Positions 3,692-21,311 of a DNA stretch of 64,000 nt are shown here, piece by piece. The position numbers and the translations under genes are program-made. The stretch is from assembly GCA_041910055.1 (NCBI GenBank), contig JAYRRP010000003.1, positions 45,973 through 109,972 of the forward strand, read 5' to 3'. Each line of letters opens with the position of its first letter. Position 1 is the stretch's first letter. Under the pieces are notes generated by a model. The model did no database searches, was not told where the DNA came from, and saw only the letters and a program-made list of their open reading frames with translations. This DNA is from Candidatus Saccharimonadales bacterium. GTDB lineage: Bacteria > Patescibacteriota > Saccharimonadia > Saccharimonadales > JAYRRP01.

Positions 3692-3766
3692 GCGGGTGTC
3701 GTATAACGGCTATTATGCTAGCCTTCCAAGCTAGAAATGGCGGTTCAATTCCGCCCACCCGCACCA
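3692..3766 (+). tRNA. tRNA-Gly (anticodon UCC)
   Basis: Manual cloverleaf: acceptor GCGGGTG/CACCCGC, anticodon stem CTAGC/GCTAG, loop CTTCCAA, T arm GGCGG-TTCAATT-CCGCC, encoded CCA. Confidence 0.9.
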
Positions 3767-3789
3767 GGAAATCAAAATTGCGTTGACGC

Positions 3790-3866
3790 GCCCCGGTAGC
3801 TCAGCTGGATAGAGCAGGACGGTTCTAACGTCAAGGTCGTGGGTTCGAGTCCTACCCGGGGTACCA
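3790..3866 (+). tRNA. tRNA-Arg (anticodon UCU)
   Basis: Acceptor GCCCCGG/CCGGGGT, D arm GCTC-AGCTGGATA-GAGC, anticodon loop GTTCTAA, T arm GTGGG-TTCGAGT-CCTAC, encoded CCA. There is one mismatch at the base of the anticodon stem. Confidence 0.85.
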
Positions 3867-3878
3867 CTTTACTTATGC

Positions 3879-3907
3879 TTGCAACAGTATAGATTTGACC
3901 AGATAAT
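3879..3907 (+). promoter_or_regulatory. Promoter TTGCAA-N17-GATAAT, 8 nt upstream of ATG 3916
   Basis: Hexamers and spacing were read directly. There is no Shine-Dalgarno sequence between the -10 and the ATG. Confidence 0.5.
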
Positions 3908-3915
3908 GGCTGGTA

Positions 3916-5244
3916 ATGAGTGATTTCGAAGAGGAAGATTACTTTAGTGAACAGCAACAATGGAACCAGCGTGCAATCGCTGAACCAAATTTTGATTACT
4001 TCGAAGCCTATAGACCAGACCAGCCGAAAGCTGCTATAGGCCAGTACGTAGCAGATGAAGGGTTCAGTGTACCCCTCATTACCGACCAAGAGGAGTGGAA
4101 AAAAGCTTTTGACAATGGTACCGCCATGCTCCGTAGTGAGCTGCCTCAAGATTATGATGGTTTATCGGGCTTATTGTCTAGTGAGAAGCTGAGAGATTCT
4201 TTGCCTCAGCGATGGGCAGAGGTGCCTGAAGGATTCGTTCATGACCTTGGAGAACTCATACTGAGAGGTTTGCGTAGTGGTGAACTCCACCCTTCAGACT
4301 ACATGAAAAACTTTAGGGGGCCCTACATGAACTGGACTTCTGAAGAAGCTGAATTGGTACAAACAGCTGCCAATTTTGGTGGGCTGGATTATTTGAATAT
4401 GCACAATGCAAGTGCAAGCCAGTGGCACTATATTGAAGGCACCAATGTATCGGTTTTCGCCGATCCGCATGTCGAAGGACGGTATCATTTTGGTGTTGTA
4501 CCTTTTGATCCTGAAAACCCACAGCAATATCAAGGTATAGGCGGCTATCAATTTGAGGCCGACGAGTACGATACGCCAAAACAATTTAGAAAGCATGATC
4601 AACCTTTTGTTGCCTGGCCGTTCGTTGAGTATTATGAGCAAATCCGAAACTTACCACGCTTTGATACAACGCAGTGTCCGGTTCTTGAGTTGCAACAAGA
4701 CGTAGAAGGAAACATACACTTTTTGCAGTACTTAAAAACTGGGCAAAGGAAAGACTATATAGAGCCCTTTGATCTGCCTGTTTCCGAGGATATACTCCAC
4801 ACCACGAATGTGCGAGGGATTACGCCACCTGACGGAAAGCAAATGCGCATGTTTATGGCTCCTAATTTATTGAAGAAAGGCATGGAAGATCAAGCTATTT
4901 TTTGTAGAGTAACAGAGCCCCGGTATTTAGAAGTACAGTTAGCCGCAAAAGCAGCGTCATTTATTTTGCACGAAGCGTATATAAGTTTTCAGGATAATCA
5001 CTTTGATTCTTCGCCCCTATATAGTCCACCGCTGGCTGCCGGCTTAAGTGGAGGCTACGACAGCTCCCAGAAAGTTCGAGAAAAAGTAAGTGCAGTTTTA
5101 GAAGATGCTTCAGTTAGAAGGATTAATCATTTTGACAGGGAGAACGTGGCTTATCTTGATATTCAAGTAACGTCTAATGGTCGTGAAGCTGCCATTGAAA
5201 GCGATTGGGAAGTTAAAGTTATCCCGTATGAAGAAGTAAGGTAG
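3916..5244 (+). CDS. Hypothetical cytosolic protein (442 aa, acidic N-terminus)
   Basis: Long uninterrupted ORF with its own promoter. I recognise no family motif. Confidence 0.7.
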   Translation: MSDFEEEDYFSEQQQWNQRAIAEPNFDYFEAYRPDQPKAAIGQYVADEGFSVPLITDQEEWKKAFDNGTAMLRSELPQDYDGLSGLLSSEKLRDSLPQRWAEVPEGFVHDLGELILRGLRSGELHPSDYMKNFRGPYMNWTSEEAELVQTAANFGGLDYLNMHNASASQWHYIEGTNVSVFADPHVEGRYHFGVVPFDPENPQQYQGIGGYQFEADEYDTPKQFRKHDQPFVAWPFVEYYEQIRNLPRFDTTQCPVLELQQDVEGNIHFLQYLKTGQRKDYIEPFDLPVSEDILHTTNVRGITPPDGKQMRMFMAPNLLKKGMEDQAIFCRVTEPRYLEVQLAAKAASFILHEAYISFQDNHFDSSPLYSPPLAAGLSGGYDSSQKVREKVSAVLEDASVRRINHFDRENVAYLDIQVTSNGREAAIESDWEVKVIPYEEVR

Positions 5245-5285
5245 AAACAGTTGCCAAATTTGTGCACTTAGATTGCACGAGGCTT

Positions 5286-5294
5286 TGTTAAGAT
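5286..5294 (+). promoter_or_regulatory. Extended -10 (TGTTAAGAT), 6 nt upstream of ATG 5301 (leaderless candidate)
   Basis: TGT-TAAGAT-AAGAAA-ATG, with no SD. Confidence 0.4.
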
Positions 5295-5300
5295 AAGAAA

Positions 5301-6137
5301 ATGAGACGTACTGTCCGTACGCAATTGTTGCCAATTGCCCTCACCGTCATTATCTTTTTTTGCCTATGCATATTGCTATGGCTGGAAATCCATTTATTAA
5401 ATAAGTTCACGGCAACGGATATTGAGATACATCTCCGAATCGGTGCCATTCTTGTGGGACTCACTATTTATTTAAAAACATCAATTGATTTTGCTATTTA
5501 TATTGGTCGACTTATGGACAAAAATCCAGGCACCCGAGGCCGTATTGCTATCGAACTCGGTACTGCCCTCGGAAACGCTGCAGGCACCATGATCATTTTG
5601 GCAGTTTGGACATTCTTTAAAGAAATCCGCTGGTTATTGGCGATTATGATATTAATCGCCGCTCTCGTTCTGTTGCGGTTAGCAGAGGAAGGCCTGGAGC
5701 ATGTCAACTCCTCTGAAAAACGCTACTCCCGTCAATTTTACAGATTTGCAGATAAGTTTCATATCGCATTAACCAGGTTCAACCGCGTTTTTGAACCATT
5801 TTTACGACGAATTGTCCCCTCCACAAAAGTAAGTAGCCAACGCGCTATGCAGTTTTTACCGCTTTTATTACTTAGCTTTAGCGTACCGTTTATTCTGGGA
5901 CTTGATGACTTTGCAGGATACGTTCCGCTCTTTAATATTGTCAACGTCTTTGGATTTTCAGTCGGCGTATTCTTAGGCCACATGATATTGAATATGCTGC
6001 TCTACCTTTCACCCCGCCACACTATCGCTGTCGTGAAGAATTCAGTAATATCACTACTTGGCAGTGTTGCCTTTGTCGGATTATCGGCGTGGGGGTTCAT
6101 TGAAGTGGTAAAACTGCTCTTCCTCCACCATAGCTAA
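5301..6137 (+). CDS. Polytopic membrane protein, unknown function
   Basis: 278-aa ORF with multiple hydrophobic helices across its length. Confidence 0.7.
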   Translation: MRRTVRTQLLPIALTVIIFFCLCILLWLEIHLLNKFTATDIEIHLRIGAILVGLTIYLKTSIDFAIYIGRLMDKNPGTRGRIAIELGTALGNAAGTMIILAVWTFFKEIRWLLAIMILIAALVLLRLAEEGLEHVNSSEKRYSRQFYRFADKFHIALTRFNRVFEPFLRRIVPSTKVSSQRAMQFLPLLLLSFSVPFILGLDDFAGYVPLFNIVNVFGFSVGVFLGHMILNMLLYLSPRHTIAVVKNSVISLLGSVAFVGLSAWGFIEVVKLLFLHHS

Positions 6138-6150
6138 CCCTCATAAGTCA

Positions 6151-6159
6151 TGGTATAAT
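6151..6159 (+). promoter_or_regulatory. Extended -10 promoter (TGGTATAAT) of tRNA-His
   Basis: Lies 20 nt upstream of the tRNA and is followed by the CACCCCTGTT discriminator motif. Confidence 0.5.
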
Positions 6160-6179
6160 CACCCCTGTTGAAATTACAT

Positions 6180-6257
6180 GGCGAACGTAGCTCAGTTGGT
6201 TAGAGCGTCGGGTTGTGGTCCCGAAGGCCGTGGGTTCGAGCCCCATCGTTCGCCCCA
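6180..6257 (+). tRNA. tRNA-His (anticodon GUG) with genome-encoded G-1
   Basis: An extra 5' G pairs opposite discriminator C. Acceptor GCGAACG/CGTTCGC, anticodon loop TTGTGGT, T arm GTGGG-TTCGAGC-CCCAT, encoded CCA. Confidence 0.92.
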
Positions 6258-9343: not shown

Positions 9344-11775
9344 TGCAAGTCGAATTTGACATAAATAACCCAAGGGTTAGGAAAGCCCGTTTAGGTGCAA
9401 GGCTCAGTAAACCAATGCGTCTTGCCTTTCTCAAGTTTACAGTTGCCTTGTTGCTAGTCGGCATGATCTTTGTCGTCATTACTGGTCATAAGTTCGGCTA
9501 TCTCCTTGGCATACCAGCAATACCATTACTTATGGTGTGGGTATGGTACAAAGGAGAGTTGCAGGCTCTGCCTCCCACCTTTCAACCAAACGCGACAGTC
9601 ATCAAATTGCATGAGGCACTTGATGCGAGAGTTGTCGGACGATTGAAGACCAGTCAACCTTCTCCGTATGACATATGGAAAGCCGTCAATGGGATGTGGC
9701 GGCAACAGTTTTTCTCCGTACGGTTCGGCATTGGTACGGATATTTTCGAACAATCTTTGAGCCGCGACCCTACGCACACACCAGTAATTATCGAGCAAGC
9801 CGTTCACTTCGCCGAAATCGAGCAGCAATCCGGCATCAGTGGCTCCGCACTCACAGTTGCCTTGCTCTTTAGTATCCAAGGATATGAGTCTTACTTGCAA
9901 CAATTGCAACTTGAGCCTGACGATATTGTCGCCGGGCTAAGATGGCAACAACGTATAGTGGCCATACTTGGTTACTTGGCTGAGCGACACAGTGCAGGCG
10001 GCATCGCACGGGATTGGACTGCAGGCTATACCCCACTATTGAACCAAGTTGGGCATAATGTGAGCCAAGAAGTACAACTCAACAAAGGGTTGCTTCTCCA
10101 TGATACCGAGAGCCATCAGCAGACTATCCAGCAGCTGGTCGGTTTCCTGAAGCAAGGTTCACGTAATAACGTCGTGCTTGTCGGTGATGTGGGGGTTGGC
10201 AAAACAACCGTTGTAAAAGCTTTTGCGCGCAATCTCTTATTTGATAGGGATGTCCCTGAGGAAATCAGATATGCCCAAGTATTCTCGCTGGATGCGGCGG
10301 TCATACTCGCTAACACCAAAGGCAGAGCAGCGCTTGAAGATATCGTCTTGCGTATTCTCAATGAAACTTACCATGCAAAAAATATCATCCTCTTCTTAGA
10401 CGACGCTCAGCTATTCCTAGAGGAAGGCACTGGTTCCGCCGATTTGAGTAACCTGCTCTTGCCAGTTATGCAGGCTGGTAATCTGCGGATTGTATTATCA
10501 ATGACCCCGCAACAATGGCAGCATCTTTCCGCCCACAATTCGGCATTGGCGGGATTGCTGAACGCAGTTATGGTCCAACCGCCTACCCAGGAAAATATTA
10601 TGAATATCATGGAAGACCAGGTGCTCTTAGTTGAGTACCATCATAAAGTAACTTTCATGTATCAAGCCATCCAGGAAGCGTACCGTCTGGCTGACCGCTA
10701 TATGTCCGACACCGCTTTTCCGGGTAAAGGTATCCGTTTGCTGGAAACGGCAGTCAACAATGCAGCAGGAAGCTTAGTCACTGCTGAGTCAGTACAAAAA
10801 AGCATCGAGAGTTCACTGGGAGTCAAGGTCTCTAAAGCCACCCACACCGAGAAACAACAGTTGCTGCATCTGGAAGACGAACTGCATCAACGCATGATCA
10901 ATCAATCCCGTGCGGTACAAGTGGTGTCTGACGCACTGCGCCGTTCACGTAGCGGTGTGGGCAACCCAAACCGGCCAGTCGGCACCTTCTTATTCCTAGG
11001 ACCAACTGGTGTCGGCAAAACAGAACTTACAAAGGCACTGGCCGATGCGTACTTTGGCGGTAAAGAGCATATGGTCCGTGTTGATATGAACGAATACGTG
11101 CAAAGCAGTGACGTAGAACGATTGCTTGCCAGCAGTGCTGCAGAAAACACCAACAGCTTCTTGAGCCAGATGAAGCGAGACCCCTTCAGCGTGGTCTTGT
11201 TTGATGAAATTGAGAAGGCCCATCCCGATATCGTGAATACCCTTCTACAGCTTATAGATGAAGGTAGGATTCGTGACAGCGATAACCGTGAAGTCTCCTT
11301 CCGCGACGCTATTATTATTGCTACTTCAAACGCCGGAGCAAATGAAATCCGCCAACGTATTGAGGCTGGCCAGAACCTAGAGACTTTCGAGCAGGAATTT
11401 ATAGACCAGCTCGTAGCTACAAATCAATTCAAGCCAGAGTTTCTGAACCGCTTTGACGAAATCGTCTTGTTCAGACCCCTTAATAAAACCGAGCTACTCC
11501 AAGTAGTTGAATTGCTTATTCAAGAAGTAAATGTAACCCTTAACCGTCAAAAAGTCCGGGTAGAACTTACAGATGCTGCCAAACAATGGATAGTCGATAA
11601 TGGTTATGATGCGCGGCTCGGTGCCCGACCGATGCGCCGAATGGTACAGCGATCGGTTGAGAATATTGTTGCCAAACGCTTGCTGCAAACCGATTCAGCA
11701 GCCGGTAATGTCTTTACGCTGGATGTCGCCGAACTCGCCGCGGAACATAGCGCATCATCAAAACCAACCTCCTAA
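9343..11775 (+). CDS. Membrane-anchored two-ring AAA+ Clp/Hsp100-family ATPase (ClpA/B/C-like, no M-domain)
   Basis: Two N-terminal TM helices and a Clp_N-like repeat region. D1 Walker A is GDVGVGKTT, with Walker B FLDDAQ. D2 Walker A is GPTGVGKTE, with Walker B VVLFDEIEKAH and ARPMRR. Start set to GTG 9343, but the exact start is uncertain; the 9250 start of the ORF track lies inside the upstream gene. Confidence 0.85.
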   Translation: MQVEFDINNPRVRKARLGARLSKPMRLAFLKFTVALLLVGMIFVVITGHKFGYLLGIPAIPLLMVWVWYKGELQALPPTFQPNATVIKLHEALDARVVGRLKTSQPSPYDIWKAVNGMWRQQFFSVRFGIGTDIFEQSLSRDPTHTPVIIEQAVHFAEIEQQSGISGSALTVALLFSIQGYESYLQQLQLEPDDIVAGLRWQQRIVAILGYLAERHSAGGIARDWTAGYTPLLNQVGHNVSQEVQLNKGLLLHDTESHQQTIQQLVGFLKQGSRNNVVLVGDVGVGKTTVVKAFARNLLFDRDVPEEIRYAQVFSLDAAVILANTKGRAALEDIVLRILNETYHAKNIILFLDDAQLFLEEGTGSADLSNLLLPVMQAGNLRIVLSMTPQQWQHLSAHNSALAGLLNAVMVQPPTQENIMNIMEDQVLLVEYHHKVTFMYQAIQEAYRLADRYMSDTAFPGKGIRLLETAVNNAAGSLVTAESVQKSIESSLGVKVSKATHTEKQQLLHLEDELHQRMINQSRAVQVVSDALRRSRSGVGNPNRPVGTFLFLGPTGVGKTELTKALADAYFGGKEHMVRVDMNEYVQSSDVERLLASSAAENTNSFLSQMKRDPFSVVLFDEIEKAHPDIVNTLLQLIDEGRIRDSDNREVSFRDAIIIATSNAGANEIRQRIEAGQNLETFEQEFIDQLVATNQFKPEFLNRFDEIVLFRPLNKTELLQVVELLIQEVNVTLNRQKVRVELTDAAKQWIVDNGYDARLGARPMRRMVQRSVENIVAKRLLQTDSAAGNVFTLDVAELAAEHSASSKPTS

Positions 11776-11822
11776 AGTCTCAGATATCATTGAGTCAAAT
11801 CTGGCACGCAGTTACATAAAAA

Positions 11823-11849
11823 CTCCAGGCTGAGGCCTGGGGTTTTATT
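11823..11849 (+). terminator. Rho-independent terminator after the Clp-like gene
   Basis: CTCCAGGC-TGAG-GCCTGGGG followed by TTTTATT. Confidence 0.7.
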
Positions 11850-11864
11850 GTAATATTAAGATTA

Positions 11865-12464
11865 ATGAAAGACCTTTTACTGCTTCTATCAGCGCTTATT
11901 ACAATTGGCGGTGTAGTACCTTATATTCTTGACATTCTTAAGGGCAAAACCAAGCCTAATATTGTCTCTTGGATTACCTGGACGCTTCTTACAGGATTGG
12001 CAACCGCCGCATTGATAGCAGCACATGAATACCGAGCAGCTTTCTTCACGGGAGCTGCAGTGATTGAGACGGCATCGGTTGTAATACTTGGGCTAAGACA
12101 TGGGTACGTTAAGTACACTCAATTTGATGTAATATGCCAAATTGCAGCAGTCGTTGGACTAATCCTGTGGCAGATATTTAACACACCATTCATAGCAGTC
12201 TTCGCTGCCGTAACAATAGATCTCATAGGCGCATTACCTACCTTCAGACACTCCTGGCAAAAACCATTTGAAGAAACTTGGACTACCTATGCTTTATCGG
12301 GTATTGGAGCGTTGGTAGCATTGTTCGCCCTTGTGTCTTACAACTGGACAAGTCTTTCATACCCCGTGTATATAGTTCTTGTAAACATACTTATTACTAC
12401 TACTATCCTCATTGCGAGAAAAGTTAGCTTACAGAAAAACAGTACCCATTCTCGTACAAAATGA
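11865..12464 (+). CDS. Polytopic membrane protein (about 6-7 TM), unknown function
   Basis: 199-aa hydrophobic ORF placed between two terminators. Confidence 0.65.
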   Translation: MKDLLLLLSALITIGGVVPYILDILKGKTKPNIVSWITWTLLTGLATAALIAAHEYRAAFFTGAAVIETASVVILGLRHGYVKYTQFDVICQIAAVVGLILWQIFNTPFIAVFAAVTIDLIGALPTFRHSWQKPFEETWTTYALSGIGALVALFALVSYNWTSLSYPVYIVLVNILITTTILIARKVSLQKNSTHSRTK

Positions 12465-12493
12465 AAAATAGCAACTAAAAGATTGCTGTTTTT
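12464..12493. terminator. Bidirectional A/T-flanked hairpin terminator
   Basis: AAAAATAGCAA-CTAAAAGA-TTGCTGTTTTT. It sits between the 11865 gene and the displaced tRNA-Pro 3' fragment. Confidence 0.6.
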
Positions 12494-12496
12494 CAT

Positions 12497-12514
12497 TGGT
12501 CGGGGTGAGAGGAC
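12497..12514. repeat. att direct repeat, distal copy (TGGTCGGGGTGAGAGGAC)
   Basis: Perfect 18/18 match to 19901-19918, which is the 3' end of tRNA-Pro. Confidence 0.8.
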
Positions 12515-12576
12515 AGCGCTCGGGCTCACGCGCCGTGCTAACCTCCGATGTCGTCGGTTCAATTCTGGTACCATCA

Positions 12577-12612
12577 TGCAAAAAGCTCAGGCTTTGGTCT
12601 GAGCTTTTTGCA
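12577..12612. terminator. 14-bp-stem bidirectional hairpin at the left edge of the element
   Basis: TGCAAAAAGCTCAG-GCTTTGGT-CTGAGCTTTTTGCA. The core is GCTCAG/CTGAGC, flanked by an A-run and a T-run. Confidence 0.55.
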
Positions 12613-12754
12613 TGGTCGGGGGTAACAGATTTTTCTCAAACTTTAGATTTGATAATCCGCCAACGCCAAAACCTTAACATTATGGTAGAACGTCTGACTG
12701 CTGTTAGCAAATATGACGATAAGAAATTATCACTAATAAGTCTATAATGGTGGT

Positions 12755-12961
12755 ATGGGAAATCTGTATGAACAGACACAAACTCTGCAATATATTAAGG
12801 ATATGATTGTTCTAGACCCAGTGGGTAAGCCCTCAGATAGTACTCCATTGGAAGAAAGGCTAAAAAACTACCCCAAAGATCTAAATCCAATAGACAGTCC
12901 TGCGACAGTATTCTGGCACGTAAAAGACAAGCCCCCTAAGGATAAAAGAAGCAAAAAATAA
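12755..12961 (+). CDS. Hypothetical small protein (68 aa), Lys-rich C-terminus
   Basis: ORF preceded by TATAAT (12743-12748) at N6 from the ATG. No recognisable family. Confidence 0.4.
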   Translation: MGNLYEQTQTLQYIKDMIVLDPVGKPSDSTPLEERLKNYPKDLNPIDSPATVFWHVKDKPPKDKRSKK

Positions 12962-13057
12962 CTTAGCGTAAGTTAGCTCAAACTTGTACTAGTGTGGACC
13001 GAAAACAAGACTTGCCTTGTTGCAGAGTTATAAACTATTATTAGTGTACAAACGTTA

Positions 13058-13108
13058 GTGCTTATGCTTGTACCGCTTAAAAGCACCAGAGTGTACAAGC
13101 AAGAGCAC
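13058..13108. repeat. 16-bp imperfect inverted repeat with 19-nt loop
   Basis: GTGCTTATGCTTGTAC ... GTACAAGCAAGAGCAC, with 14 Watson-Crick pairs, one G-U and one mismatch. Intergenic inside the element. Confidence 0.5.
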
Positions 13109-13129
13109 CGAAAAGAAACGACTCCCTAA

Positions 13130-13444
13130 CTATTCACGAGTAGAGGGAGTCTTTTTATATGCGTAAACGAACTTTGTTGTGTGGTCGCCACCACCAGGAC
13201 CGCCGTCAGTGCCAAGTCGTTCAATGAAGAACAGTTCAACATTACGGGCTGCCGTTTGGTTGCCAGCATCACGGTAAATCCAGTAGCCGTTGTCTTTATC
13301 AACGTTGTGGTCAACAAAGAGCCGTTGTTCTGGTGCCGATGCAATGCCAACATACCAATCAGCATAACGGGGATGTCGGAGCTTTATGTGCTCGTCTATA
13401 GCAACCGCAGTCTGCTGTTCAACAGGTGTCAGTGTAATTTGCAT
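13130..13444 (-). CDS. Small protein with weak GIY-YIG-like signature
   Basis: 104 aa. WYVGIASAPEQRLFVDHNV resembles the YIG...RL..H segment of GIY-YIG/T5orf172-type domains. The assignment is tentative. It is divergent from the repressor gene. Confidence 0.55.
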   Translation of the reverse strand: MQITLTPVEQQTAVAIDEHIKLRHPRYADWYVGIASAPEQRLFVDHNVDKDNGYWIYRDAGNQTAARNVELFFIERLGTDGGPGGGDHTTKFVYAYKKTPSTRE

Positions 13445-13568
13445 ATTTGCCTTTCTGATTTTTTACCTTATACCCCCGTACGACCTCTGCTCTCTGGTTT
13501 GCAGTTCGGGTTACTACAAAATATATAGGATTTTAACAGATGAGTCAAGCCAATCAAGACGATTAAGA

Positions 13569-13596
13569 TTGACAACATCATCAAAACGACTATAAT
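13569..13596 (+). promoter_or_regulatory. Near-consensus sigma70 promoter TTGACA-N16-TATAAT of the repressor gene
   Basis: Hexamers read directly, followed by the AGGGGTGA SD and ATG 13607. Confidence 0.65.
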
Positions 13597-13606
13597 TAGG
13601 GGTGAT

Positions 13607-14239
13607 ATGCACGAGCTACAGAGTAAAATACTTGAGCTAGCCGAGAATAACCAGCTTGATGGGATGAACCTTAGGGACATTGGTGATTCTGTTGGTGAAA
13701 ACCACCTACAGAAGGTCAAACATCACCTTAACCAACTACTAGCAAAGAACTTCATTGGCATTGACTCAAATGGTAACTACAGGGTTATTAAAAGTGGTCA
13801 AAATCAGCTTAGGAGCGGGGGCATTATTAGTATTCCTATCTATGGGGCTGCTAATTGTGGTCCCGCCGAAATCTTTGCAGAAGATAACTTAGAGGGTTAC
13901 CTTGAAGTCTCCGAGAAACTAGTAAAATACAGCCAAAGCCTAATAGCACTCAGAGCCGTTGGCGACTCTATGAACCGATCAAACCTTTCAGGCAATGCTA
14001 TTGACGCTGGAGACTACCTTATTATTGACACTGATGACAAGAGACCAAAAGACGGAGACTATGTACTGTCCATATTCAACAATATGGCGAATATAAAAAG
14101 ATTCTTTTTTGATAAGATTACAGGCACAGTTACTTTGGTATCTGAATCAAATAGAGCCATCCCACCAATAGTTGCCGACCCAGATGACGATTATATGGTG
14201 GCTGGTAAAGTGCTAAGAGTAGTTAAATCATACTCTTAG
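13607..14239 (+). CDS. LexA/CI-like repressor: N-terminal winged-helix domain plus C-terminal S24 self-cleaving peptidase
   Basis: S24 Ser motif AVGDSMN, Lys motif ANIKRF, and a candidate cleavage region GAANCGP between the domains. Confidence 0.85.
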   Translation: MHELQSKILELAENNQLDGMNLRDIGDSVGENHLQKVKHHLNQLLAKNFIGIDSNGNYRVIKSGQNQLRSGGIISIPIYGAANCGPAEIFAEDNLEGYLEVSEKLVKYSQSLIALRAVGDSMNRSNLSGNAIDAGDYLIIDTDDKRPKDGDYVLSIFNNMANIKRFFFDKITGTVTLVSESNRAIPPIVADPDDDYMVAGKVLRVVKSYS

Positions 14240-14240
14240 A

Positions 14241-14489
14241 CTAAATGTCTTGCTTTCTTTCCTTGTACATATCGTAGATTAACTTTGCTAGAGCTTCCGC
14301 ATCTTCTTTTCGTTTATCCCTGATCACAAGGTCGTCTAATTGTTTCTTGGTTATTGGCTGGTAGACAGTTTTTACCTGCAATAACAGCATCGTAAGTTTT
14401 TTACGTGCAATCTGATAGTCCAGCTCTTTCCCAAACTTAGATTTGTATAAGTCTTGAAACTTTTTTACGTCTTTTTCGGTTATCTCCAT
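14241..14489 (-). CDS. Hypothetical small helical protein (82 aa), Lys/Glu-rich
   Basis: Its stop lies 1 nt from the repressor stop (convergent). It is divergent from dcm. No family recognised. Confidence 0.5.
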   Translation of the reverse strand: MEITEKDVKKFQDLYKSKFGKELDYQIARKKLTMLLLQVKTVYQPITKKQLDDLVIRDKRKEDAEALAKLIYDMYKERKQDI

Positions 14490-14587
14490 CCGTCAATTCT
14501 GCACTAAATGTACCTATGTTGTAAAATGCTAATGCTGTCTTTTTTACGTCATATTCGTCCGTAAGAATACGCTATACTATAAGCACT

Positions 14588-15640
14588 ATGAGACAACAAC
14601 AATTACTGGACAATACTGCACCATTTGCCCCAAAAAACGGCAAGAAAACTTCGTTTACTTTTATAGACTTATTTGCAGGTATCGGTGGTACACGCCTTGG
14701 TTTTGAATCTGCTGGTGGAAAATGTGTATTTACATCTGAGTGGGACATACACGCACAAAAAACATATCAGGCTAATTTTGGCGATATTCCTCACGGAGAT
14801 ATAACAAAGATAGATGCTAATGATATACCTGACTTTGATGTACTACTCGGAGGTTTCCCTTGTCAGCCATTTAGTTCTATAGGCAAACGGCAGGGTTTTC
14901 AGCATACAACCCAGGGCACATTGTTCCACGACATAGCAAACATAATAGACATTAAAAAGCCGAAAAGTTTTATGCTTGAAAACGTGCCTGGCTTACTAAC
15001 GCACGATGGTGGTAACACGTTCAGGGTGATTTTAGATAGTCTTGATGACCTCGGCTACAAAGTCTGGTATAAGGTATTAGACTCCTCACATTTTGGTGTT
15101 CCTCAGCAAAGAAAACGAATCTACATAGTGGGTTTTAGAAAAGACCTTATTGAGAAGGGGTATGAGTTTGTGCATCCCGTTGGCAAAAACAACAAGGTTT
15201 ATATCAACAAGTTCATTGAGAAAAACGTTGAAGGCTATTCAATCTCAGAACATTTGCAAAAAACCTATATGTACAAGAAGGACGACGGCAGACCAATGCT
15301 GGTTGACCAAAACTCTAAAGTCCACGTTAAAACTCTAGTTTCTACTTATCACAAGATACAGCGACTTACTGGCACATTCGTGAAGGACGGTCCAACGGGG
15401 CTACGGTTATTTACGGTGGATGAGTGCAAGGCGATAATGGGCTTTCCTCCTAACTTTGTAGTGCCTGTTTCAAGAACTCAAATGTACAGACAGTTTGGTA
15501 ATTCCATAGTTGTCCCTGTTGTTGAAGCAGTCGCAAAGGAATTATCTAAAACTCTGAAAGTTATTGAAGCAAATGAAAAAAAGGCTATTAAAGAGATTGA
15601 GAGTATTAAGCCAGTCTTAGCTGACGCATTATCAGCCTAA
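14588..15640 (+). CDS. dcm: DNA (cytosine-5)-methyltransferase
   Basis: Motifs I FAGIGG, IV GFPCQPFS, VI ENVPGL, VIII QQRKR, and X QFGNSIVVPV. Confidence 0.93.
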   Translation: MRQQQLLDNTAPFAPKNGKKTSFTFIDLFAGIGGTRLGFESAGGKCVFTSEWDIHAQKTYQANFGDIPHGDITKIDANDIPDFDVLLGGFPCQPFSSIGKRQGFQHTTQGTLFHDIANIIDIKKPKSFMLENVPGLLTHDGGNTFRVILDSLDDLGYKVWYKVLDSSHFGVPQQRKRIYIVGFRKDLIEKGYEFVHPVGKNNKVYINKFIEKNVEGYSISEHLQKTYMYKKDDGRPMLVDQNSKVHVKTLVSTYHKIQRLTGTFVKDGPTGLRLFTVDECKAIMGFPPNFVVPVSRTQMYRQFGNSIVVPVVEAVAKELSKTLKVIEANEKKAIKEIESIKPVLADALSA

Positions 15641-16212
15641 CTTATATGACCGTCAATGCCGAAACGATCGTAAGTTTCTAGAATCGCCTTACAGAAATCT
15701 ATCATTTCCTTATCGCCTTCCGACTTAGCGTTGGCTTGGAGACGTAAGAACATTTTTTTACCCATTTCTGACTGACCATAGGTTTTTTTCTGGAAATTAT
15801 GCTGTGCACAAAGCGTTTGTCCGTTTTCTATTGTTGCTTTACCGTCATATTCTTTAGGTTTTACGTGGTCAATTTGAAGTTCTACGCCATTCTCTTTACC
15901 CCGCCCACAGATAACACACTTGTAACCATCTCTTTCCAGTATCGCCTGTTTTTGCACAGGTGTGAAATCCTCAAGTTCTCGCTTGATAACGTATTCAGGG
16001 TCATATTTGTAGATACCCTTACCGACCTTTATAAGTAAGCCTTCTTGAGCCATTTTGCGAATTGCACGGTCTGGGTCACGTAGTATTTTGCCAGTTTGTT
16101 TGTTGTATTCTTGAGTTGCCCAATCTACCGCTTTTGAATGGGGTATATTTTGCTTGGGGCGGTCCTTGTAGTATTGCAATATCAGTGTGGCTTGCGAAAT
16201 GTTATTAGTCAT
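15637..16212 (-). CDS. HNH endonuclease, probable cognate restriction enzyme
   Basis: C-terminal CVICG...QIDHVKP...NGQTLCAQHN HNH/zinc motif and an N-terminal winged-helix-like domain. Its 3' end overlaps the dcm 3' end by 4 nt. Confidence 0.82.
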   Translation of the reverse strand: MTNNISQATLILQYYKDRPKQNIPHSKAVDWATQEYNKQTGKILRDPDRAIRKMAQEGLLIKVGKGIYKYDPEYVIKRELEDFTPVQKQAILERDGYKCVICGRGKENGVELQIDHVKPKEYDGKATIENGQTLCAQHNFQKKTYGQSEMGKKMFLRLQANAKSEGDKEMIDFCKAILETYDRFGIDGHIS

Positions 16213-16333
16213 TAGTAAAAAGTATACTTCAACACCTTATATATAAAAATCATCTTGTCAAAAACCGTTAAGAAAATGCAGATTGACACAGGTTTACTAT
16301 TATGGAAATATAATTGAATTAACAGAGGTCATT

Positions 16334-16342
16334 TGCTATAAT
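16334..16342 (+). promoter_or_regulatory. Extended -10 (TGCTATAAT) upstream of the MgsA_C-like gene
   Basis: TGnTATAAT lies about 37 nt upstream of ATG 16379, which has a GGGGG SD. Confidence 0.4.
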
Positions 16343-16378
16343 ATAACTACATTCTTTAACAATTTGGGGGTAAAAATT

Positions 16379-17008
16379 ATGACAAATAATGACACCAAAA
16401 GCACAGCCAAAAAGTCATCATATCGTGGTGGCTATGAGCTAAAAGTAATCGGCGACTATGAGTTTGACGAAGTCAGTTCTGCAATGCAGAAGATGATTCG
16501 CCGAAATCAGGAGTATGAAGCCTGCTGGTGGGCGTACGTGCTACACGATAGCGGTTACTACAAATACGTCTGGCGTAGGTTGATGATAATAGCCTCGGAA
16601 GATATTGGTAACGCTAACCCGATGGCAGCCATAATGGTAAATACCCTCAGACAGAACTATGAAGCCACTATGGACAGTAAGACCAGGTTCGGTGGCAATG
16701 GTGCATTATTCTTGTTTCAAGCCATTATGTACCTCTGTTCCTCCGAAAAGGTACGAGAAGCCGATACCCTAGCTAACTTGGTTATCAAGGAGTTCAAGGA
16801 CGGCAAACGCCTAGAAATACCCGAGGTCGCCGTAGACGTACACACTGCTAGAGGCAAGACTATACACGGTAAGTGGGAACAAGGCACTGACGAGGAAAAG
16901 AAAGAGCGGGCGAAGAAATGGTATGAGATTTGGTCAGCCGTAACCCCAGCTTCAAAAATGCCTGATAAGTATCTTGATAAGTGGAAGAAATTGGAGGGTC
17001 ATCTATGA
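16379..17008 (+). CDS. Stand-alone RarA/MgsA C-terminal-domain (MgsA_C-like) protein, no AAA+ module
   Basis: FDEVSSAMQKMIRR, RRLMIIASEDIGNANP, AIMYLCSSEK and VDVHTARGK align by eye with E. coli RarA YDLISALHKSVRGS, ARRCLAIASEDVGNADP, AIVYLACAPKSN and VPVHLRNAPTK. Start set at the ATG after the SD; the TTG 16283 extension was rejected. Confidence 0.72.
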   Translation: MTNNDTKSTAKKSSYRGGYELKVIGDYEFDEVSSAMQKMIRRNQEYEACWWAYVLHDSGYYKYVWRRLMIIASEDIGNANPMAAIMVNTLRQNYEATMDSKTRFGGNGALFLFQAIMYLCSSEKVREADTLANLVIKEFKDGKRLEIPEVAVDVHTARGKTIHGKWEQGTDEEKKERAKKWYEIWSAVTPASKMPDKYLDKWKKLEGHL

Positions 17009-17898
17009 ACACTCTAGTTAAAGCGACAATTCCTAAAGATTACACGGCCCTCTTTGATAACTTGGACGTAGCCGAAAGTACCAGAGCAGATTATTGTTAC
17101 CGTTTGCCATTATTCGTGTCCTACGTGAACCTGTATGGCTTTGATACAAACACCTATTTACACTATAAGAGGTATCTACGAGCGACTAAATGGTCGGTAT
17201 CAACCAAGAACAAGCATCTAATAGTGGCGAGGGTTTTCCTAAAGGAGATGCACCGCCAGGGCTTACTGCCAACCGACATTACACATAACGTAAAGGCTTT
17301 TAAGCAAAGTAAGAAGCACAAGAAACGTGGCTTGAATGATATTGAGGTCAAGAGACTTACTACTTGGCTTGCCGATCTGCCAGAAACGCCAGAAAGCGAT
17401 AGGCTCAAAGCAATTTTTAGCCTGCTGTTGTTACAGGGTTTACGTCTTATAGAAATATGCAGGCTAGACTTTGAGGACTTAGACTTTGAAAACGATAGAC
17501 TGTTTGTATGGGGTAAAGGCAGAGACGATAAAGAACCAGTCCTGTTAATTCCCCAGACTGTTACGTACCTGCGAGAGTATTTAAGAAGTAATGAAGTAAG
17601 AGACGGTGCGTTATTTAGGAGTAATAGCCATAGCCAAATGGGCAGCAGATTATCTACTCGTGGACTTCGTGAGATTATCTCGGTCATATTCAAGATGTTA
17701 CATATAAACAAGACCGCTCACGGGACACGCCATTATTACACCAGCAAGCTATTAAAACATATGCCTGGGGAGTTACTTGATGTGGCTCAATTCACACGAC
17801 ACCGAAGCATTGAGATGTTGCGTGAATACGATAATCGCAATAAACAGGACTTTGCCCTAGACAAAGTGGTTGCGGCATTTGCAGGTGTCAATTTTTAA
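17005..17898 (+). CDS. Tyrosine recombinase (XerC/D / phage integrase family)
   Basis: Catalytic signature: GLRLIEICRL (Arg), HGTRHYY (HxxR) and RHRSIEMLREY (His...Tyr). ATG 17005 forms an ATGA overlap with the upstream stop. Confidence 0.88.
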   Translation: MNTLVKATIPKDYTALFDNLDVAESTRADYCYRLPLFVSYVNLYGFDTNTYLHYKRYLRATKWSVSTKNKHLIVARVFLKEMHRQGLLPTDITHNVKAFKQSKKHKKRGLNDIEVKRLTTWLADLPETPESDRLKAIFSLLLLQGLRLIEICRLDFEDLDFENDRLFVWGKGRDDKEPVLLIPQTVTYLREYLRSNEVRDGALFRSNSHSQMGSRLSTRGLREIISVIFKMLHINKTAHGTRHYYTSKLLKHMPGELLDVAQFTRHRSIEMLREYDNRNKQDFALDKVVAAFAGVNF

Positions 17899-17915
17899 GC
17901 TAAATGCCCAAACAA

Positions 17916-18099
17916 TTCCCTGCAATTTCCCTAAACAAGTCCTATAAAGGTGCTGTTTTCATACCAGATTGCCCTAATGTTGTCGGATTTACACGCGATA
18001 AAGTTAGGGAAATGATAGGGAGAATATAGGGAACGTCCTAACATAGACCCCCTAACCTAAAAACCAAATAGTCTAGGAAATTGGTAGGCGATTGGTAGG
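17916..18099. repeat. Array of 11-bp-phased short repeats (TAGGGA family and ATTGGTAGG)
   Basis: TTCCCT at 17916 and 17927; CCCTAA at 17972 and 18050; TAGGGA at 18005, 18016 and 18027; ATTGGTAGG at 18080 and 18091. There is a perfect 10-bp inverted pair, ATTTCCCTAA (17925-17934) and TTAGGGAAAT (18004-18013). Confidence 0.65.
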
Positions 18100-18223
18100 A
18101 AATGAGCTAAATTAAACACCCATTTACTGCCAATAACACTAATTACAAGCACTAACATTACACCTTAAATTATTTGAGCCTTTGAACTCTAGCAAACTAT
18201 AATAAACGTAGGAGAACTACAGT

Positions 18224-19912
18224 TTGAGCGATAACAATATAGACCTATTCAAAATTATCCAAAGTCAGGTAGCACCAACTGCACCTAAGGAGATTGACCC
18301 TACGCAGCTTCGTTATGCTATATATGTCCGCAAGTCTACCGAAAGTGAAGAAAGACAAATCCGCTCTATACCAGACCAGATTAGTGATTGTATGGAGCTA
18401 GTAGTTGAGCCAAACGGTATTGTAATCAACCAAAAGACTGACATCTTCAAGGAGGAAAAGTCTGCAAAGGAAGCGGGTACAAGACCTGTATTCCGAGAAC
18501 TAATGAACAAAATTGCTGATGGCAAATACGATGCCCTGATATCGTGGCACTACGATCGCATCGCCAGAAATATGAAAGAAGCGGGTGAGATAATTGACCT
18601 AATAGACCGAGGGCAAATCAAAGACCTTAAACTTGCAAAAGCTACATTTGAAAACACTCCAAATGGCAAGATGATACTCGGTATAAGCTTTGTGCTGTCA
18701 AAGCACTATTCAGACCACCTAAGCGAATCGGTATTGCGAGGTAATAAAAGTAGTACCGAAAAAGGCAGGATACTCGCACACCAAGTACACGGCTACCGTA
18801 TCAGTGAGGATAGAAAGCTAATTGCCGACGACAGCAATTACTTAATTATTGAACACGCTTTTAGAATGAGACTTGAAAATAAGTCATTGAAAGACATAGC
18901 AAAGTACATTAACGATAACGGCTACAGGGTACATAGACCAAGCATAGGACACAGAATTAGTATTTTTGACGAGGATAAAGTCTCTAAACTGCTAAGAAAT
19001 CCAGTTTATGCAGGTGTTAATGTCTATGGTAAGACAGTAGTACGTATGGCAGATATTGACCCAGACTTTACGCCAATGGTTAGTGAAGAAGATTTCGTTG
19101 CCCTTAATGGTAAGGGTAGCTTTTTACCTTACACAATGACAGGTTCAAAGCGAATCGCACCTAACGATGTGTCTGACTTTTTACGACAGTTTATAATATG
19201 CGGACACTGTGGTCGTAAACTGGGTACGAGCGTAACTTCAAAGTATACGACAAATAACGGCGTTAAGAGTAAACAGCCAGTCCACTTCTATTTCCGCTTC
19301 AAGTGCAATAACAAGGTCTGCGAAGCATTTGGCAGTGGTCCGAAAGGCTCACTAATAAAAGATTATGTAGCAGATTTTCTACAATCTCACCTATTTACTA
19401 CCAAAAGCAACTATAAACGATACCTAGAAGATGCTCAGACGTTTCTAGCGACACGAAAGGCAGAACTTACGTCTGCCAATAAAAGTCTAACCATACTACT
19501 AAGCAAGAAACGCCGAGAGTACGATGATGCTAAAACTATTGCTGCCGATAACAATAACCCCCTATCCGTACACTACACGCCAAAGCACCTAGATAAGCTA
19601 AAAAACGAAGTGGACGATTACGACAAGCAGGTGCTGGAGATTCGGAAGGAACTTGAGGACCAAAATACTGCTTTGGTGTCTTATGACGAGTTTCTCAAAC
19701 TTTACGAAAATGCGGCTGAATTACTTCGTACAACCTATGGTATGACGATGGCTGACGAACTTATACGGATTTTCTTCTCAAACTTGACTGTAATAAGCAA
19801 ACCATACGGCAAAAAATTGAAACAAAAACAGTGGTCGGTAACTGACCACTGCCTTAACGAACCGTTTGACGATTTCGTCAAAAACGGTGATTTTCTTGTA
19901 TGGTCGGGGTGA
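18224..19912 (+). CDS. Large serine recombinase
   Basis: Resolvase catalytic segment YVRKSTESE...R, a recombinase domain, the zinc-ribbon CGHCGRKL...C..C, and a C-terminal coiled coil. TTG start with AGGAG SD. The last 4 codons and the stop lie inside the att repeat and tRNA-Pro. Confidence 0.9.
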   Translation: MSDNNIDLFKIIQSQVAPTAPKEIDPTQLRYAIYVRKSTESEERQIRSIPDQISDCMELVVEPNGIVINQKTDIFKEEKSAKEAGTRPVFRELMNKIADGKYDALISWHYDRIARNMKEAGEIIDLIDRGQIKDLKLAKATFENTPNGKMILGISFVLSKHYSDHLSESVLRGNKSSTEKGRILAHQVHGYRISEDRKLIADDSNYLIIEHAFRMRLENKSLKDIAKYINDNGYRVHRPSIGHRISIFDEDKVSKLLRNPVYAGVNVYGKTVVRMADIDPDFTPMVSEEDFVALNGKGSFLPYTMTGSKRIAPNDVSDFLRQFIICGHCGRKLGTSVTSKYTTNNGVKSKQPVHFYFRFKCNNKVCEAFGSGPKGSLIKDYVADFLQSHLFTTKSNYKRYLEDAQTFLATRKAELTSANKSLTILLSKKRREYDDAKTIAADNNNPLSVHYTPKHLDKLKNEVDDYDKQVLEIRKELEDQNTALVSYDEFLKLYENAAELLRTTYGMTMADELIRIFFSNLTVISKPYGKKLKQKQWSVTDHCLNEPFDDFVKNGDFLVWSG

Positions 19913-19918
19913 GAGGAC
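19901..19918. repeat. att direct repeat, tRNA-proximal copy (TGGTCGGGGTGAGAGGAC)
   Basis: Identical to 12497-12514. It corresponds to the tRNA-Pro T-arm 3' strand, acceptor 3' strand, discriminator and CCA. Confidence 0.8.
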
Positions 19919-19977
19919 TTGAACCTCCGACCTCCTGGTCCCAAACCAGGCGCGCTAGCCAACTGCGCCACACCCCG
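19901..19977 (-). tRNA. tRNA-Pro (anticodon UGG)
   Basis: Acceptor CGGGGTG/CACCCCG, D arm GCGC-AGTTGGCTA-GCGC, anticodon stem CCTGG/CCAGG with loop TTTGGGA, T arm GGAGG-TTCAAGT-CCTCT, encoded CCA. Confidence 0.93.
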
Positions 19978-20012
19978 GAATTATTTATCTTTAAGGACAG
20001 AGGTGATTATAG

Positions 20013-20468
20013 CTAAATCTTGCTTTTTCTACCAGATGCAGCTGCCAACAGTCGAGCAGGATTTATTTTTTGCATAGCTGGTTGAGGGGTTACCCAAGCC
20101 AGTGCATCATCAGCACTTCTAAACAGTTTCACCTGCTTTTCTTCACTCACAAACTGAACCATATTTTTTGCCACGTTTAGTACTCCTGGATAACTCCCGT
20201 ATATTGCCAGTCGGCGGAATGGCACACTCTGAATAGCAATAACAGCCTTTTGGTATGCAACTGCATCGATGGCTGATATTTCGCAAATACAAATCAAGAT
20301 ATTTCGGGGCGCAAACTTCTTATTCATCAAAGTCTGGACTTGCTGGACAGCTTGTTCAACAATTTCACCGGTGAGATCACAGGCAAGTTTCACACGGATT
20401 AAACCATTGTCCTGTGTAACAATGGTTGCGGGCTTCCTCACCTCTGATTTGCGTTTTCCCATTTGCAT
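20013..20468 (-). CDS. Hypothetical protein, possibly STAS/SpoIIAA-like fold
   Basis: 151-aa ORF whose alternating hydrophobic pattern and C-terminal ...LFRSADDALAWV resemble anti-sigma-antagonist-like domains. Weak assignment. Confidence 0.55.
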   Translation of the reverse strand: MQMGKRKSEVRKPATIVTQDNGLIRVKLACDLTGEIVEQAVQQVQTLMNKKFAPRNILICICEISAIDAVAYQKAVIAIQSVPFRRLAIYGSYPGVLNVAKNMVQFVSEEKQVKLFRSADDALAWVTPQPAMQKINPARLLAAASGRKSKI

Positions 20469-20507
20469 AAGTCTATTAACCTCCTAGCGATAATAATATG
20501 AGATTTC

Positions 20508-21311
20508 TCACATATTAAGGTGTTGATTAATGGGTGTCACGCTTTCAGCAAGACCACTTGCAATATTCACTTCTATAAGTACGGCGTTAAACTGCAGAGT
20601 TCCCATTTCTTCAATCTCGTTTTTAGTAAGTTTACTGTCGCGCCACCGAGGTATAACAGAAGCAAGCGTTACCCCAAGACTAGAATGTAAGGCACCACAC
20701 ATACCGACATCAGTAATATGGGCCGTGCCTTTCGGCAAGACCATGGCATCAGCTGTCGGCACATGCCAATGGTCACCTATTACTGCCGATACTTTTCCAT
20801 CAAGATAATATCCGATTATTATCTTCTCACTCGAAAAGTCACCATGGAAATTAACGATGGTCGCGATATGTTTTATGTGCGCTGTTTCGTCAAGAATTTT
20901 GTCAACTATCTGCAAGGGATTATCAACCGGCTTTTCCGCGTCCCGACCAACGATTTGACCCAATAGACTTATGACTAATATTTTCCCAGCCGGTGTGCTA
21001 ATGAATGTATAACCTTTTCCAGGAGTAGTCGCTGGATAATTGGCAGGGCGTAGAACTGGCTCGTTAGTGTCTTCAAGGAATGGCAGAAGAGTACGTTGAT
21101 GTAAGCTCCAATTGCCACCAGTAAAACACTCCACACCAGCAATCTGTAAACGACGCATGTCAGAAGGCGTCATGCCGCGTCCCTCAGTAACATTCTCACT
21201 CTGGGCAATAACAACATCAATCTGTTGCTGGCGCCGCAACTCCGGCAGCACCTGCTCAACTGTTTTTATGCCTGGCTCGGCATAAATATCTCCGATGTAG
21301 AGGATTCTCAT
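20508..21311 (-). CDS. ymdB: YmdB-family metallophosphoesterase (2',3'-cyclic-nucleotide phosphodiesterase)
   Basis: MRILYIGDIYAEPG N-terminus and a GNWSLH / NFHGD metallophosphoesterase pattern. It lies immediately downstream of rny, as in Firmicutes. Confidence 0.85.
   Translation of the reverse strand: MRILYIGDIYAEPGIKTVEQVLPELRRQQQIDVVIAQSENVTEGRGMTPSDMRRLQIAGVECFTGGNWSLHQRTLLPFLEDTNEPVLRPANYPATTPGKGYTFISTPAGKILVISLLGQIVGRDAEKPVDNPLQIVDKILDETAHIKHIATIVNFHGDFSSEKIIIGYYLDGKVSAVIGDHWHVPTADAMVLPKGTAHITDVGMCGALHSSLGVTLASVIPRWRDSKLTKNEIEEMGTLQFNAVLIEVNIASGLAESVTPINQHLNM

Follow-up and report, generated by a model that had tools for sequence, protein, structure and literature searches.

A mobile element in a Candidatus Saccharimonadales genome, probably inserted at a tRNA-Pro gene by its own large serine recombinase, and a tRNA-associated clade of related recombinases

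Serine integrases are generally described as avoiding tRNA genes. Archaeal integrases of the SSV1 type are tyrosine recombinases; attP is located within their int gene, which integration into a tRNA gene divides into two large pieces. Among mycobacteriophages, those with tyrosine integrases have their attB sites exclusively in tRNA genes, unlike those with serine integrases (PMC9262239). In the integration-dependent immunity of mycobacteriophages such as BPs, attP is internal to the repressor gene, the attB site overlaps with a tRNA gene, and there is a stop codon at the junction (Broussard et al. 2013, reviewed in PMC9262239); the integrase is a tyrosine integrase, and integration removes a proven ssrA-like degradation tag from the repressor (PMC9262239). 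Of 297 serine integrase (S-Int) islands with a single integrase, 14 were predicted in a TIGER/Islander survey to lie at t(m)RNA genes, a use that its authors described as "not reported previously" and as requiring proof (Mageeney et al. 2020, PMC7192596). Here, we analyzed a stretch of 64,000 nt from a Candidatus Saccharimonadales bacterium (contig JAYRRP010000003.1; "the window" denotes this full stretch), in which the gene of a large serine recombinase (LSR) runs into a tRNA-Pro(tgg) gene. Comparison with related loci led us to the view, to which we assign a probability of about 85%, that a 7.3-kb element (12613-19909) entered the very 3′ terminus of this tRNA gene through the action of its own LSR.

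The presence of both recombinase families in the element, reported in an earlier sequence-only reading of this DNA, was confirmed. The open reading frame (ORF) at 17005-17898 encodes a tyrosine recombinase of 297 amino acid residues (PF00589, E = 1e-17, 64.9 bits against a cut-off of 27.1), whose translation shows the motifs GLRLIE, HGTRH, and LREY in agreement with the R..HxxR..Y pattern. The ORF at 18224-19912 encodes the 562-aa LSR (PF00239, E = 2.6e-20; PF07508, E = 2.5e-13), and a public protein set contains an identical protein (P0001; P-numbers denote LSR homologue proteins, and L-numbers denote the comparison loci that were fetched). The catalytic residues R36, S38, R112, and R115 and the zinc-ribbon residues C326, C329, C361, and C366 were invariant among 40 homologues, many homologues carry a precomputed PF13408 annotation, and the AlphaFold model of the homologue P0064 contains the canonical LSR domains, with a long helical hairpin (coiled coil) at residues 392-475 between the zinc-ribbon strands. 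Judged by its predicted domain content, the window ORF is a bona fide LSR, and it looks intact. Its best LSR identity in annotated phage and plasmid collections was only 22-24%, and its scores stayed below the NCBIfam cut-offs for the named LSR equivalogs XisF and CcrA/B/C (XisF, 74.8 bits against 375; CcrB, 60.1 against 900). The best relatives among solved structures were those of SPbeta YokA (9dxh and 9dxd). On the minus strand, tRNA-Pro(tgg) was detected with 67.9 bits in Rfam. The stop codon TGA of the LSR gene (19910-19912) lies inside both this tRNA gene and an 18-bp repeat, so that the serine enzyme does adjoin the junction, as had been noticed in the earlier reading.

That repeat, the 18-mer TGGTCGGGGTGAGAGGAC, occurs exactly twice in the window, at 12497-12514 and 19901-19918, with 0.01 chance matches expected for a 16-mer within it. 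The sequence-only reading had taken it for the att core; the repeat and its two copies are real, but they do not define the ends of the element. A third, shorter copy, TGGTCGGGG, was found at 12613-12621, directly after a terminator-like hairpin, and the nucleotide homology of the window with three independent relatives, L081, L086/L087, and L090 (LSR identities of 87%, 84%, and 79%, respectively), begins precisely at 12613. To the left of this junction, the relatives contain unrelated host DNA ending in a hairpin. To the right, conservation of the element end extends for about 370 nt in L081 (approximately 76% identity over window 12613-12983) and for some 200 nt in L086. The sequence common to attL and attR was TGGTCG in L086, TGGTCGGG in L090, and TGGTCGGGG in the window and L081, which gives a core of 6-9 bp, the last 6-9 nt of the tRNA, in four independent elements. 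This is in line with the very short core that the sequence-only reading had expected of a serine integrase. Given one crossover for all four elements, it would lie within TGGTCG, the antisense of the last six bases of the tRNA (...CGACCA). As for the end of the LSR gene, W-S-G and the stop codon are encoded by the repeat as had been stated, but the preceding Val codon (GTA, 19898-19900) lies outside it. In most of the tRNA-abutting relative loci, a search over 10 kb turned up no repeat reaching 12 nt, which fits short cores and does not itself map their far ends. The element thus differs from P4- or lambda-like tRNA islands, whose ends are set by a long direct repeat of the 3′ part of the tRNA.

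The outer 18-mer belongs to a feature of about 116 bp (window 12497-12612), hereafter the X module, in which the 18-mer is followed by AGCGCTC..GG, GCTAACCT, and GGTTCAAATCT (T-loop-like, GGTTCAAwTCT) and then by a terminator. A metagenome scan for unoccupied sites yielded three tRNA-Pro(tgg) loci without the element (L095, L100, and L093), whose right flanks encode rny or ymdB with 65-91% protein identity to the window. In L095 (6076-6198) and L100 (368-483), the X-module arrangement is kept about 100 nt from tRNA-Pro, the 18-mer of L100 carrying one mismatch. Because these element-free loci retain the same arrangement, the X module is regarded as a resident feature of the tRNA-Pro neighborhood, and the element as inserted between it and the tRNA gene. 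Since the relatives end at 12613 and the 18-mer persists without the element, the copy at 12497 is not an att core; the outer 18-bp repeat appears unconnected with the LSR element, and the premise on which an 18-bp core had been taken as the signature of a tyrosine integrase falls away. The stretch at 12515-12612 showed no homology to the related elements, and an Rfam scan of 11500-21000 at E ≤ 1 returned tRNA-Pro alone, with no match for the X module. An RNAalifold consensus of the X module, computed from only three sequences, contained nested stems with one fully compensatory pair. The module might have been left behind by an element that targeted the T-loop, or it might be a small RNA not yet described. 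Its origin from an earlier member of the LSR element's own family was rejected, as the module has a terminator and not an LSR 3′ end at its right end.

When the right end of the element was joined to its left end across the core, the LSR frame stayed open and continued as FLVWSG/VTDFSQTLDLIIRQRQNLNIMVERLTAVSKYDDKKLSLISL (the slash marks the junction) up to a stop codon. The reconstructed attP junction reads ...GATTTTCTTGTATGGTCGGGGGTAACAGATTTT..., and the reconstructed element-free attB reads ...GAGCTTTTTGCATGGTCGGGGTGAGAGGACTTGAACC.... The window, L081, L090, and L086 all have this detached tail as an open frame of exactly 41 codons. Between the window and L086, tail substitutions at the first, second, and third codon positions numbered 8, 3, and 17, respectively (chi-square p = 0.0045), with 11 synonymous and 9 non-synonymous codon changes, and the frame has no conserved start codon upstream in the host flank. 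Because of this third-position bias and the lack of a conserved start, the segment at 12622-12747 is considered to be coding and yet translatable only as the LSR C-terminus in a circle. This pattern indicates that the tail peptide is under selection in the window subclade. A hidden Markov model (HMM) of the tail, run against all fetched loci, matched only the four close relatives, so that tails are subclade-specific.

These features suggest the following mechanism. The free circle would have attP inside the 3′ end of the LSR gene and encode an enzyme of 603 residues. The LSR would recombine attP with the terminal bases of tRNA-Pro, with strand exchange within TGGTCG. Because the exchanged bases are identical, the tRNA would be rebuilt exactly, and attL and attR would share 6-9 bp. 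Integration would move the last 41 LSR codons to the far end of the element (12622-12747), and the integrated gene would end after W-S-G at a TGA supplied by the tRNA, giving the 562-aa product.

Two contigs from different samples, L101 and L102, seem to represent an LSR element of the tRNA-targeting kind in its free state. Both are 5,667 nt long with a 30-nt terminal overlap, and after trimming they are exact rotations of one circle of 5,637 bp. The circle carries an LSR (P0064), DUF5681, and DUF3761, with no tRNA and no recognizable replication gene. P0064 (593 aa) ends in ...DFDCGR-EKRLLLELFHYIIDN...GLVF, in place of ...CGRG(E/D)RT and a stop codon. Its attP is GATTG/TGGTCG/AGAGAAACGG, across which P0064 reads into a tail of 42 aa. 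The tail of P0111 is homologous to that of P0064, with the same length and the same end motif GLVF. The idea that tRNA-Pro is a cargo of the element was rejected, since the circle is devoid of tRNA and the element-free loci retain tRNA-Pro. Two other proteins were rejected as circular forms: P0118, which appears within a tandem array with a second LSR downstream, and P0006, which abuts a tRNA-like sequence not called by ARAGORN. In the latter case, P0006 (65% identical to the window LSR) enters the tRNA-like antisense sequence TGGCTGAGCATACAGGACTAGAACC... at 4340-4440 of L104, which may be a degenerate or unusual tRNA target.

To place the window LSR among its relatives, 80 LSR-relative loci were surveyed in contigs from one genome per species, 74 of them with a complete ORF. 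The LSR stop codon lay within an opposite-strand tRNA gene in 57 of the 74, and in a further four an antisense tRNA was located within 300 nt of the stop. Antisense tRNA makes up 0.67% of the locus sequence, so that the binomial probability of 57/74 is about 1e-108. Twelve tRNA types were targeted (Ser, Leu, Pro, Lys, Gly, Met, Gln, Asp, Ala, His, Val, and Ile). The CCA end was encoded in 48 of the 58 abutted tRNA genes (the 57 and that of the window), compared with 58 of the 90 other tRNA genes of the same loci (Fisher p = 0.016). Nearly all of 120 LSR homologues (38-87% identity) stop 14 residues past a conserved EP(F/W/Y)..F motif, and their C-termini, WSG, GRG, GRGERT, or longer ones such as GRGERTRTFDLxVPNRARYQLRHTP, correspond to antisense-translated 3′ halves of tRNAs. 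LSR pairs shared the tRNA type in 10/10 cases at identities of 80% or more, 24/28 at 60-80%, 34/40 at 50-60%, 44/152 at 40-50%, and about 5% below 40%. The tRNA type therefore tracks LSR similarity, the pattern of a site-specific integrase family with an occasional target switch. One seemingly recent switch was seen between L027 at Leu(caa) and L029, L033, L037, L038, and L041 at Lys(ctt), with LSRs 60-64% identical. Tandem arrays of LSR elements at a single tRNA site also occurred: an LSR 3′-end remnant lies left of attL in L012 (1840-1925), and L106 (10001-15383) contains two LSR genes in series, the upstream one gaining the tail of its neighbor. Taken from these sequences, the LSR clade is apparently large, tRNA-dedicated, and undescribed, comprising hundreds of proteins mostly from genomes of Patescibacteria (the candidate phyla radiation, CPR).

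The window LSR has the same domain order as the phage large serine integrases (A118, phiC31, Bxb1, TP901-1, and SPbeta SprA/YokA), and likewise its gene is at the element end and the attL/attR core is short. Unlike these, it targets tRNA 3′ termini, not protein-coding or intergenic sites, and its attP is inside the 3′ end of the integrase gene, so that the C-terminus would change on integration. Whereas tRNA use was the prediction for a minority of S-Int islands in the published survey (PMC7192596), it is the rule for the whole clade described here; Patescibacteria, the main hosts of this clade, are probably scarce among the complete genomes used in that survey. SSV1-type integrases resemble the window LSR in having an ORF that extends across attP, in targeting a tRNA gene, and in yielding a shortened product from the integrated copy; an attP inside the integrase ORF, interrupted on tRNA integration, was thus found here too, as an analogy and not as membership in that group. 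The differences are that the window enzyme is a serine recombinase and that it loses no more than a 41-aa tail, its catalytic and DNA-binding domains all staying together. With BPs, the window element has in common an attP in a coding gene, a tRNA attB, a stop codon at the junction, and removal of a C-terminal segment, but here the truncated gene is that of the serine integrase itself, not of a repressor. No tRNA-dedicated LSR clade and no serine integrases of Saccharibacteria or Patescibacteria at tRNA genes were found in the searchable literature, which is not proof of novelty.

The roles of the two recombinases could be the reverse, with the tyrosine recombinase as the integrase, acting through the 18-bp core at 12497/19901, and the LSR as a passenger. 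The 18-bp match extends as far as the T-loop, a typical end point at the sites of tyrosine integrases in tRNA genes, and the tyrosine recombinase looks intact and accompanies the LSR in most of the closest relatives. We nevertheless regard this explanation as highly improbable, because the related elements end at 12613 and not at 12497, and the 18-mer with its X module is present in element-free loci. Moreover, L086/L087, with the same tRNA-Pro core, contain no tyrosine recombinase anywhere in their 6.6-kb element, and L088 carries an MgsA_C protein and a tyrosine recombinase 83% identical to that of the window at tRNA-Arg(gcg), together with an LSR unrelated to that of the window (21% identity over half its length). 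The integration site thus does not co-vary with the tyrosine recombinase, since the same module occurs at tRNA-Pro and tRNA-Arg and tRNA-Pro is also occupied without it. A Pfam scan of 149 ORFs of 240-460 aa upstream of the LSR in 43 tRNA-abutting loci gave one PF00589 match besides the positive control; the sequence-only reading had proposed checking whether the two genes co-occur across related elements, and they do in most of the closest relatives, but 42 of the 43 sampled tRNA-abutting LSR elements have no PF00589 protein. With an HMM of the tyrosine recombinase family run at maximum sensitivity against all ORFs of the 80 loci, L001 matched strongly and L019 weakly, with no other match. 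At 297 aa, the Xer-like enzyme is short for a phage-type integrase and may have no room for an arm-binding domain. The sequence-only reading had also suggested that the LSR belongs to a nested second element, is an invertase or resolvase acting on the upstream repeats, or serves in excision only. Repeats and inverted repeats are indeed located just 5′ of the LSR gene (17900-18170), and PHROGs gave a secondary match of the LSR catalytic domain to a DNA invertase family. The comparative data do not support these roles, and we consider them very unlikely: with its 562 aa, Recombinase domain, zinc ribbon, and coiled coil, the protein is built as a complete LSR and not as a small invertase; the upstream repeats and a conserved 55-bp block travel with the tyrosine recombinase module and not with the LSR, as seen in L088; similarity to the relatives is contiguous over about 16290-19977 with no att-like break around the LSR gene; and clade-wide tRNA abutment with tracking of the tRNA type is expected of a site-determining integrase.

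Several points weigh against insertion by the LSR as proposed here. Catalysis of the attP × attB reaction by the LSR at these sites is deduced from comparative anatomy. The circle comes from a sister subclade with about 42% identity to that of the window, and the attP junction of the window subclade had no match in viral contigs. A protein search with the LSR C-terminus and tail gave a single truncated fragment only, and an exhaustive search with the 44-aa tail gave a 71-aa ORF called at an attL and repetitive proteins, with no full-length form of the subclade. Nor do all elements have the tail: the attP-like tandem junction of L012 has a TGA after the core as well. When the reconstructed attP and attB were scanned for dyad symmetry, only weak symmetry appeared near the core (10-11 of 22 positions), the strong signals being the terminator hairpins. 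The left host flanks vary between genomes, and no empty site syntenic on both flanks was recovered. Finally, the tyrosine recombinase is common among the closest relatives (window, L081-85, L090/91, L001, and L104) and may have an auxiliary role in mobility. Insertion by the LSR remains our preferred explanation. The sequence-only reading had stated that the puzzle of the two enzymes would dissolve if the serine enzyme used the tRNA site itself, and the comparative evidence points to such use.

Assuming that the LSR acts as the integrase, there are two ways to understand why attP overlaps the 3′ end of its gene. The C-terminal swap may be a built-in sensor of the integration state, with the 603-aa form made from the circle only and the 562-aa form from the integrated copy only, a proposal that we put forward tentatively and consider doubtful. 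Alternatively, the overlap may be mere genome compaction, the 41-aa tail having no regulatory or mechanistic role; for this, we judge the odds to be about even. The tail is absent in the L012 clade, its length (29-42 aa) and sequence vary between subclades, and the AlphaFold model of the P0064 tail, two helices, has modest confidence (predicted local distance difference test scores, pLDDT, of 55-69), all of which would fit compaction. On the other hand, exactly 41 codons with third-position-biased substitution are kept in the window subclade, and two independent tails of the GRG subclade (P0064 and P0111) keep both length and GLVF, so that selection on the peptide is indicated. Tails end in hydrophobic residues (LISL, GLVF, and LSIS). 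Were the sensor proposal true, the two LSR forms would be unequal in stability or in directionality (one proficient in integration, the other in excision, or inert), and a serine integrase would govern its directionality either with no separate recombination directionality factor (RDF) or alongside one. A crossover in or near the near-universal CCA end, if true, could explain the spread over at least 12 tRNA types.

The tyrosine recombinase resembles XerA, XerC, and XerD in size, and these were its best NCBIfam matches. It differs from them in its location on a mobile element beside a protein consisting of MgsA_C only and a conserved block, and its scores were far below the equivalog cut-offs (XerA, 89.9 against 220; XerC, 71.2 against 335; XerD, 58.8 against 330). 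No dif-like site was identified for it. The MgsA_C gene is paired with the tyrosine recombinase gene in L081-L085 and L088-L091, and the gene 5′ of the tyrosine recombinase gene is almost always MgsA_C, with DUF488 in L104. A 55-bp non-coding block 3′ of the tyrosine recombinase gene (window 18115-18169, L081 9873-9927, L085 2861-2915, and L090 11083-11137) is 96-100% identical among elements that are only about 80% identical overall. In L088, a portion of the block (10994-11027) comes after the tyrosine recombinase gene, although the next gene is not an LSR. The block may be where the tyrosine module recombines or is regulated. The region separating the recombinase genes in the window contains TAGGsAA-type direct repeats (17996-18110) with inverted partners (17916-17934), and the TAGGsAA repeats keep their number and order in L081, L085, and L090. 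We infer that MgsA_C and the tyrosine recombinase form a portable accessory module with its own conserved non-coding site. The module may resolve multimers or tandem arrays, such as those at L012 and L106, or drive module exchange.

The features of the window element are listed in Table 1. The cargo between the conserved element ends was always restriction-modification-like: Dcm and an HNH endonuclease in the window (13607-16212), two D12 methylases and a 464-aa protein in L081 (4323-7906), and a ResIII helicase and an N6/N4 methylase in L090 (5072-9204). In the window, the HNH endonuclease is probably the restriction partner of the methylase. Elements of the window type behave as small defense or restriction-modification carriers. 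Outside the element, a 151-aa ORF with no assigned function is located on the minus strand at 20013-20468 between tRNA-Pro and ymdB; it has a weak counterpart in L093 (26% identity) and is absent from the syntenic L081 and L095. Upstream, the order tRNA-Gly(tcc), tRNA-Arg(tct), and tRNA-His(gtg) is common to the window (3692-6257) and L095 (529-4356), and L095 has an extra tRNA-Pro(cgg) at 5153-5229 that the window does not have.

Table 1. Features of the element and its junctions in the window
Feature	Position	Strand	Match or evidence
Outer 18-nt copy of the tRNA-Pro 3′ end, TGGTCGGGGTGAGAGGAC, within the X module	12497..12514	.	Repeat search; element-free loci
Rest of the X module, between host DNA and element	12515..12612	.	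Conserved in L095 and L100
attL core TGGTCGGGG, true left junction	12613..12621	+	Homology to L081, L086/L087, and L090 begins here
Detached LSR gene 3′ end: 41 codons (VTDFSQTLDLIIRQRQNLNIMVERLTAVSKYDDKKLSLISL) and TAA, in frame with core W-S-G	12622..12747	+	
68-aa ORF	12755..12961	+	No family match
LexA/S24-peptidase-like repressor, cargo or regulation	13607..14239	+	PF00717; lexA model below cut-off
C-5 cytosine DNA methyltransferase (Dcm), variable cargo	14588..15640	+	PF00145, E = 3.7e-99
HNH endonuclease, variable cargo	15637..16212	-	PF01844
208-aa protein with the MgsA/RarA C-terminal domain alone; opens the tyrosine recombinase module	16382..17008	+	PF12002
Xer-like tyrosine recombinase, 297 aa	17005..17898	+	PF00589
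Intergenic region: TAGGsAA repeats, inverted repeats, 55-bp block (18115-18169), promoter-like CTAGCAAACTATAAT 5′ of the LSR gene	17899..18223	+	
LSR gene, integrated truncated form, 562 aa (predicted circular-form product, 603 aa)	18224..19912	+	
attR core TGGTCGGGG, antisense of the tRNA-Pro 3′ terminus ...CCCCGACCA	19901..19909	+	Four attL/attR pairs; attP of circle L101
Intact host tRNA-Pro(tgg), predicted to serve as attB	19901..19977	-	Element-free orthologous loci L095, L100, and L093

The finding is of more interest than the two-enzyme puzzle because it exposes a large tRNA-targeting LSR clade and because the integrase C-terminus would change on integration; these two aspects are apparently novel. 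A whole LSR clade that normally targets tRNA 3′ ends undercuts the rule that a tRNA site means a tyrosine integrase, a rule on which many island-finding tools rely. The placement of the integrase gene across attP leads to a testable hypothesis of RDF-independent control of directionality or stability. Serine integrases are major tools of genome engineering, and few genetic tools exist for CPR bacteria. An LSR family with predictable, conserved attB sites at tRNA 3′ ends could provide useful tools, including for CPR bacteria.

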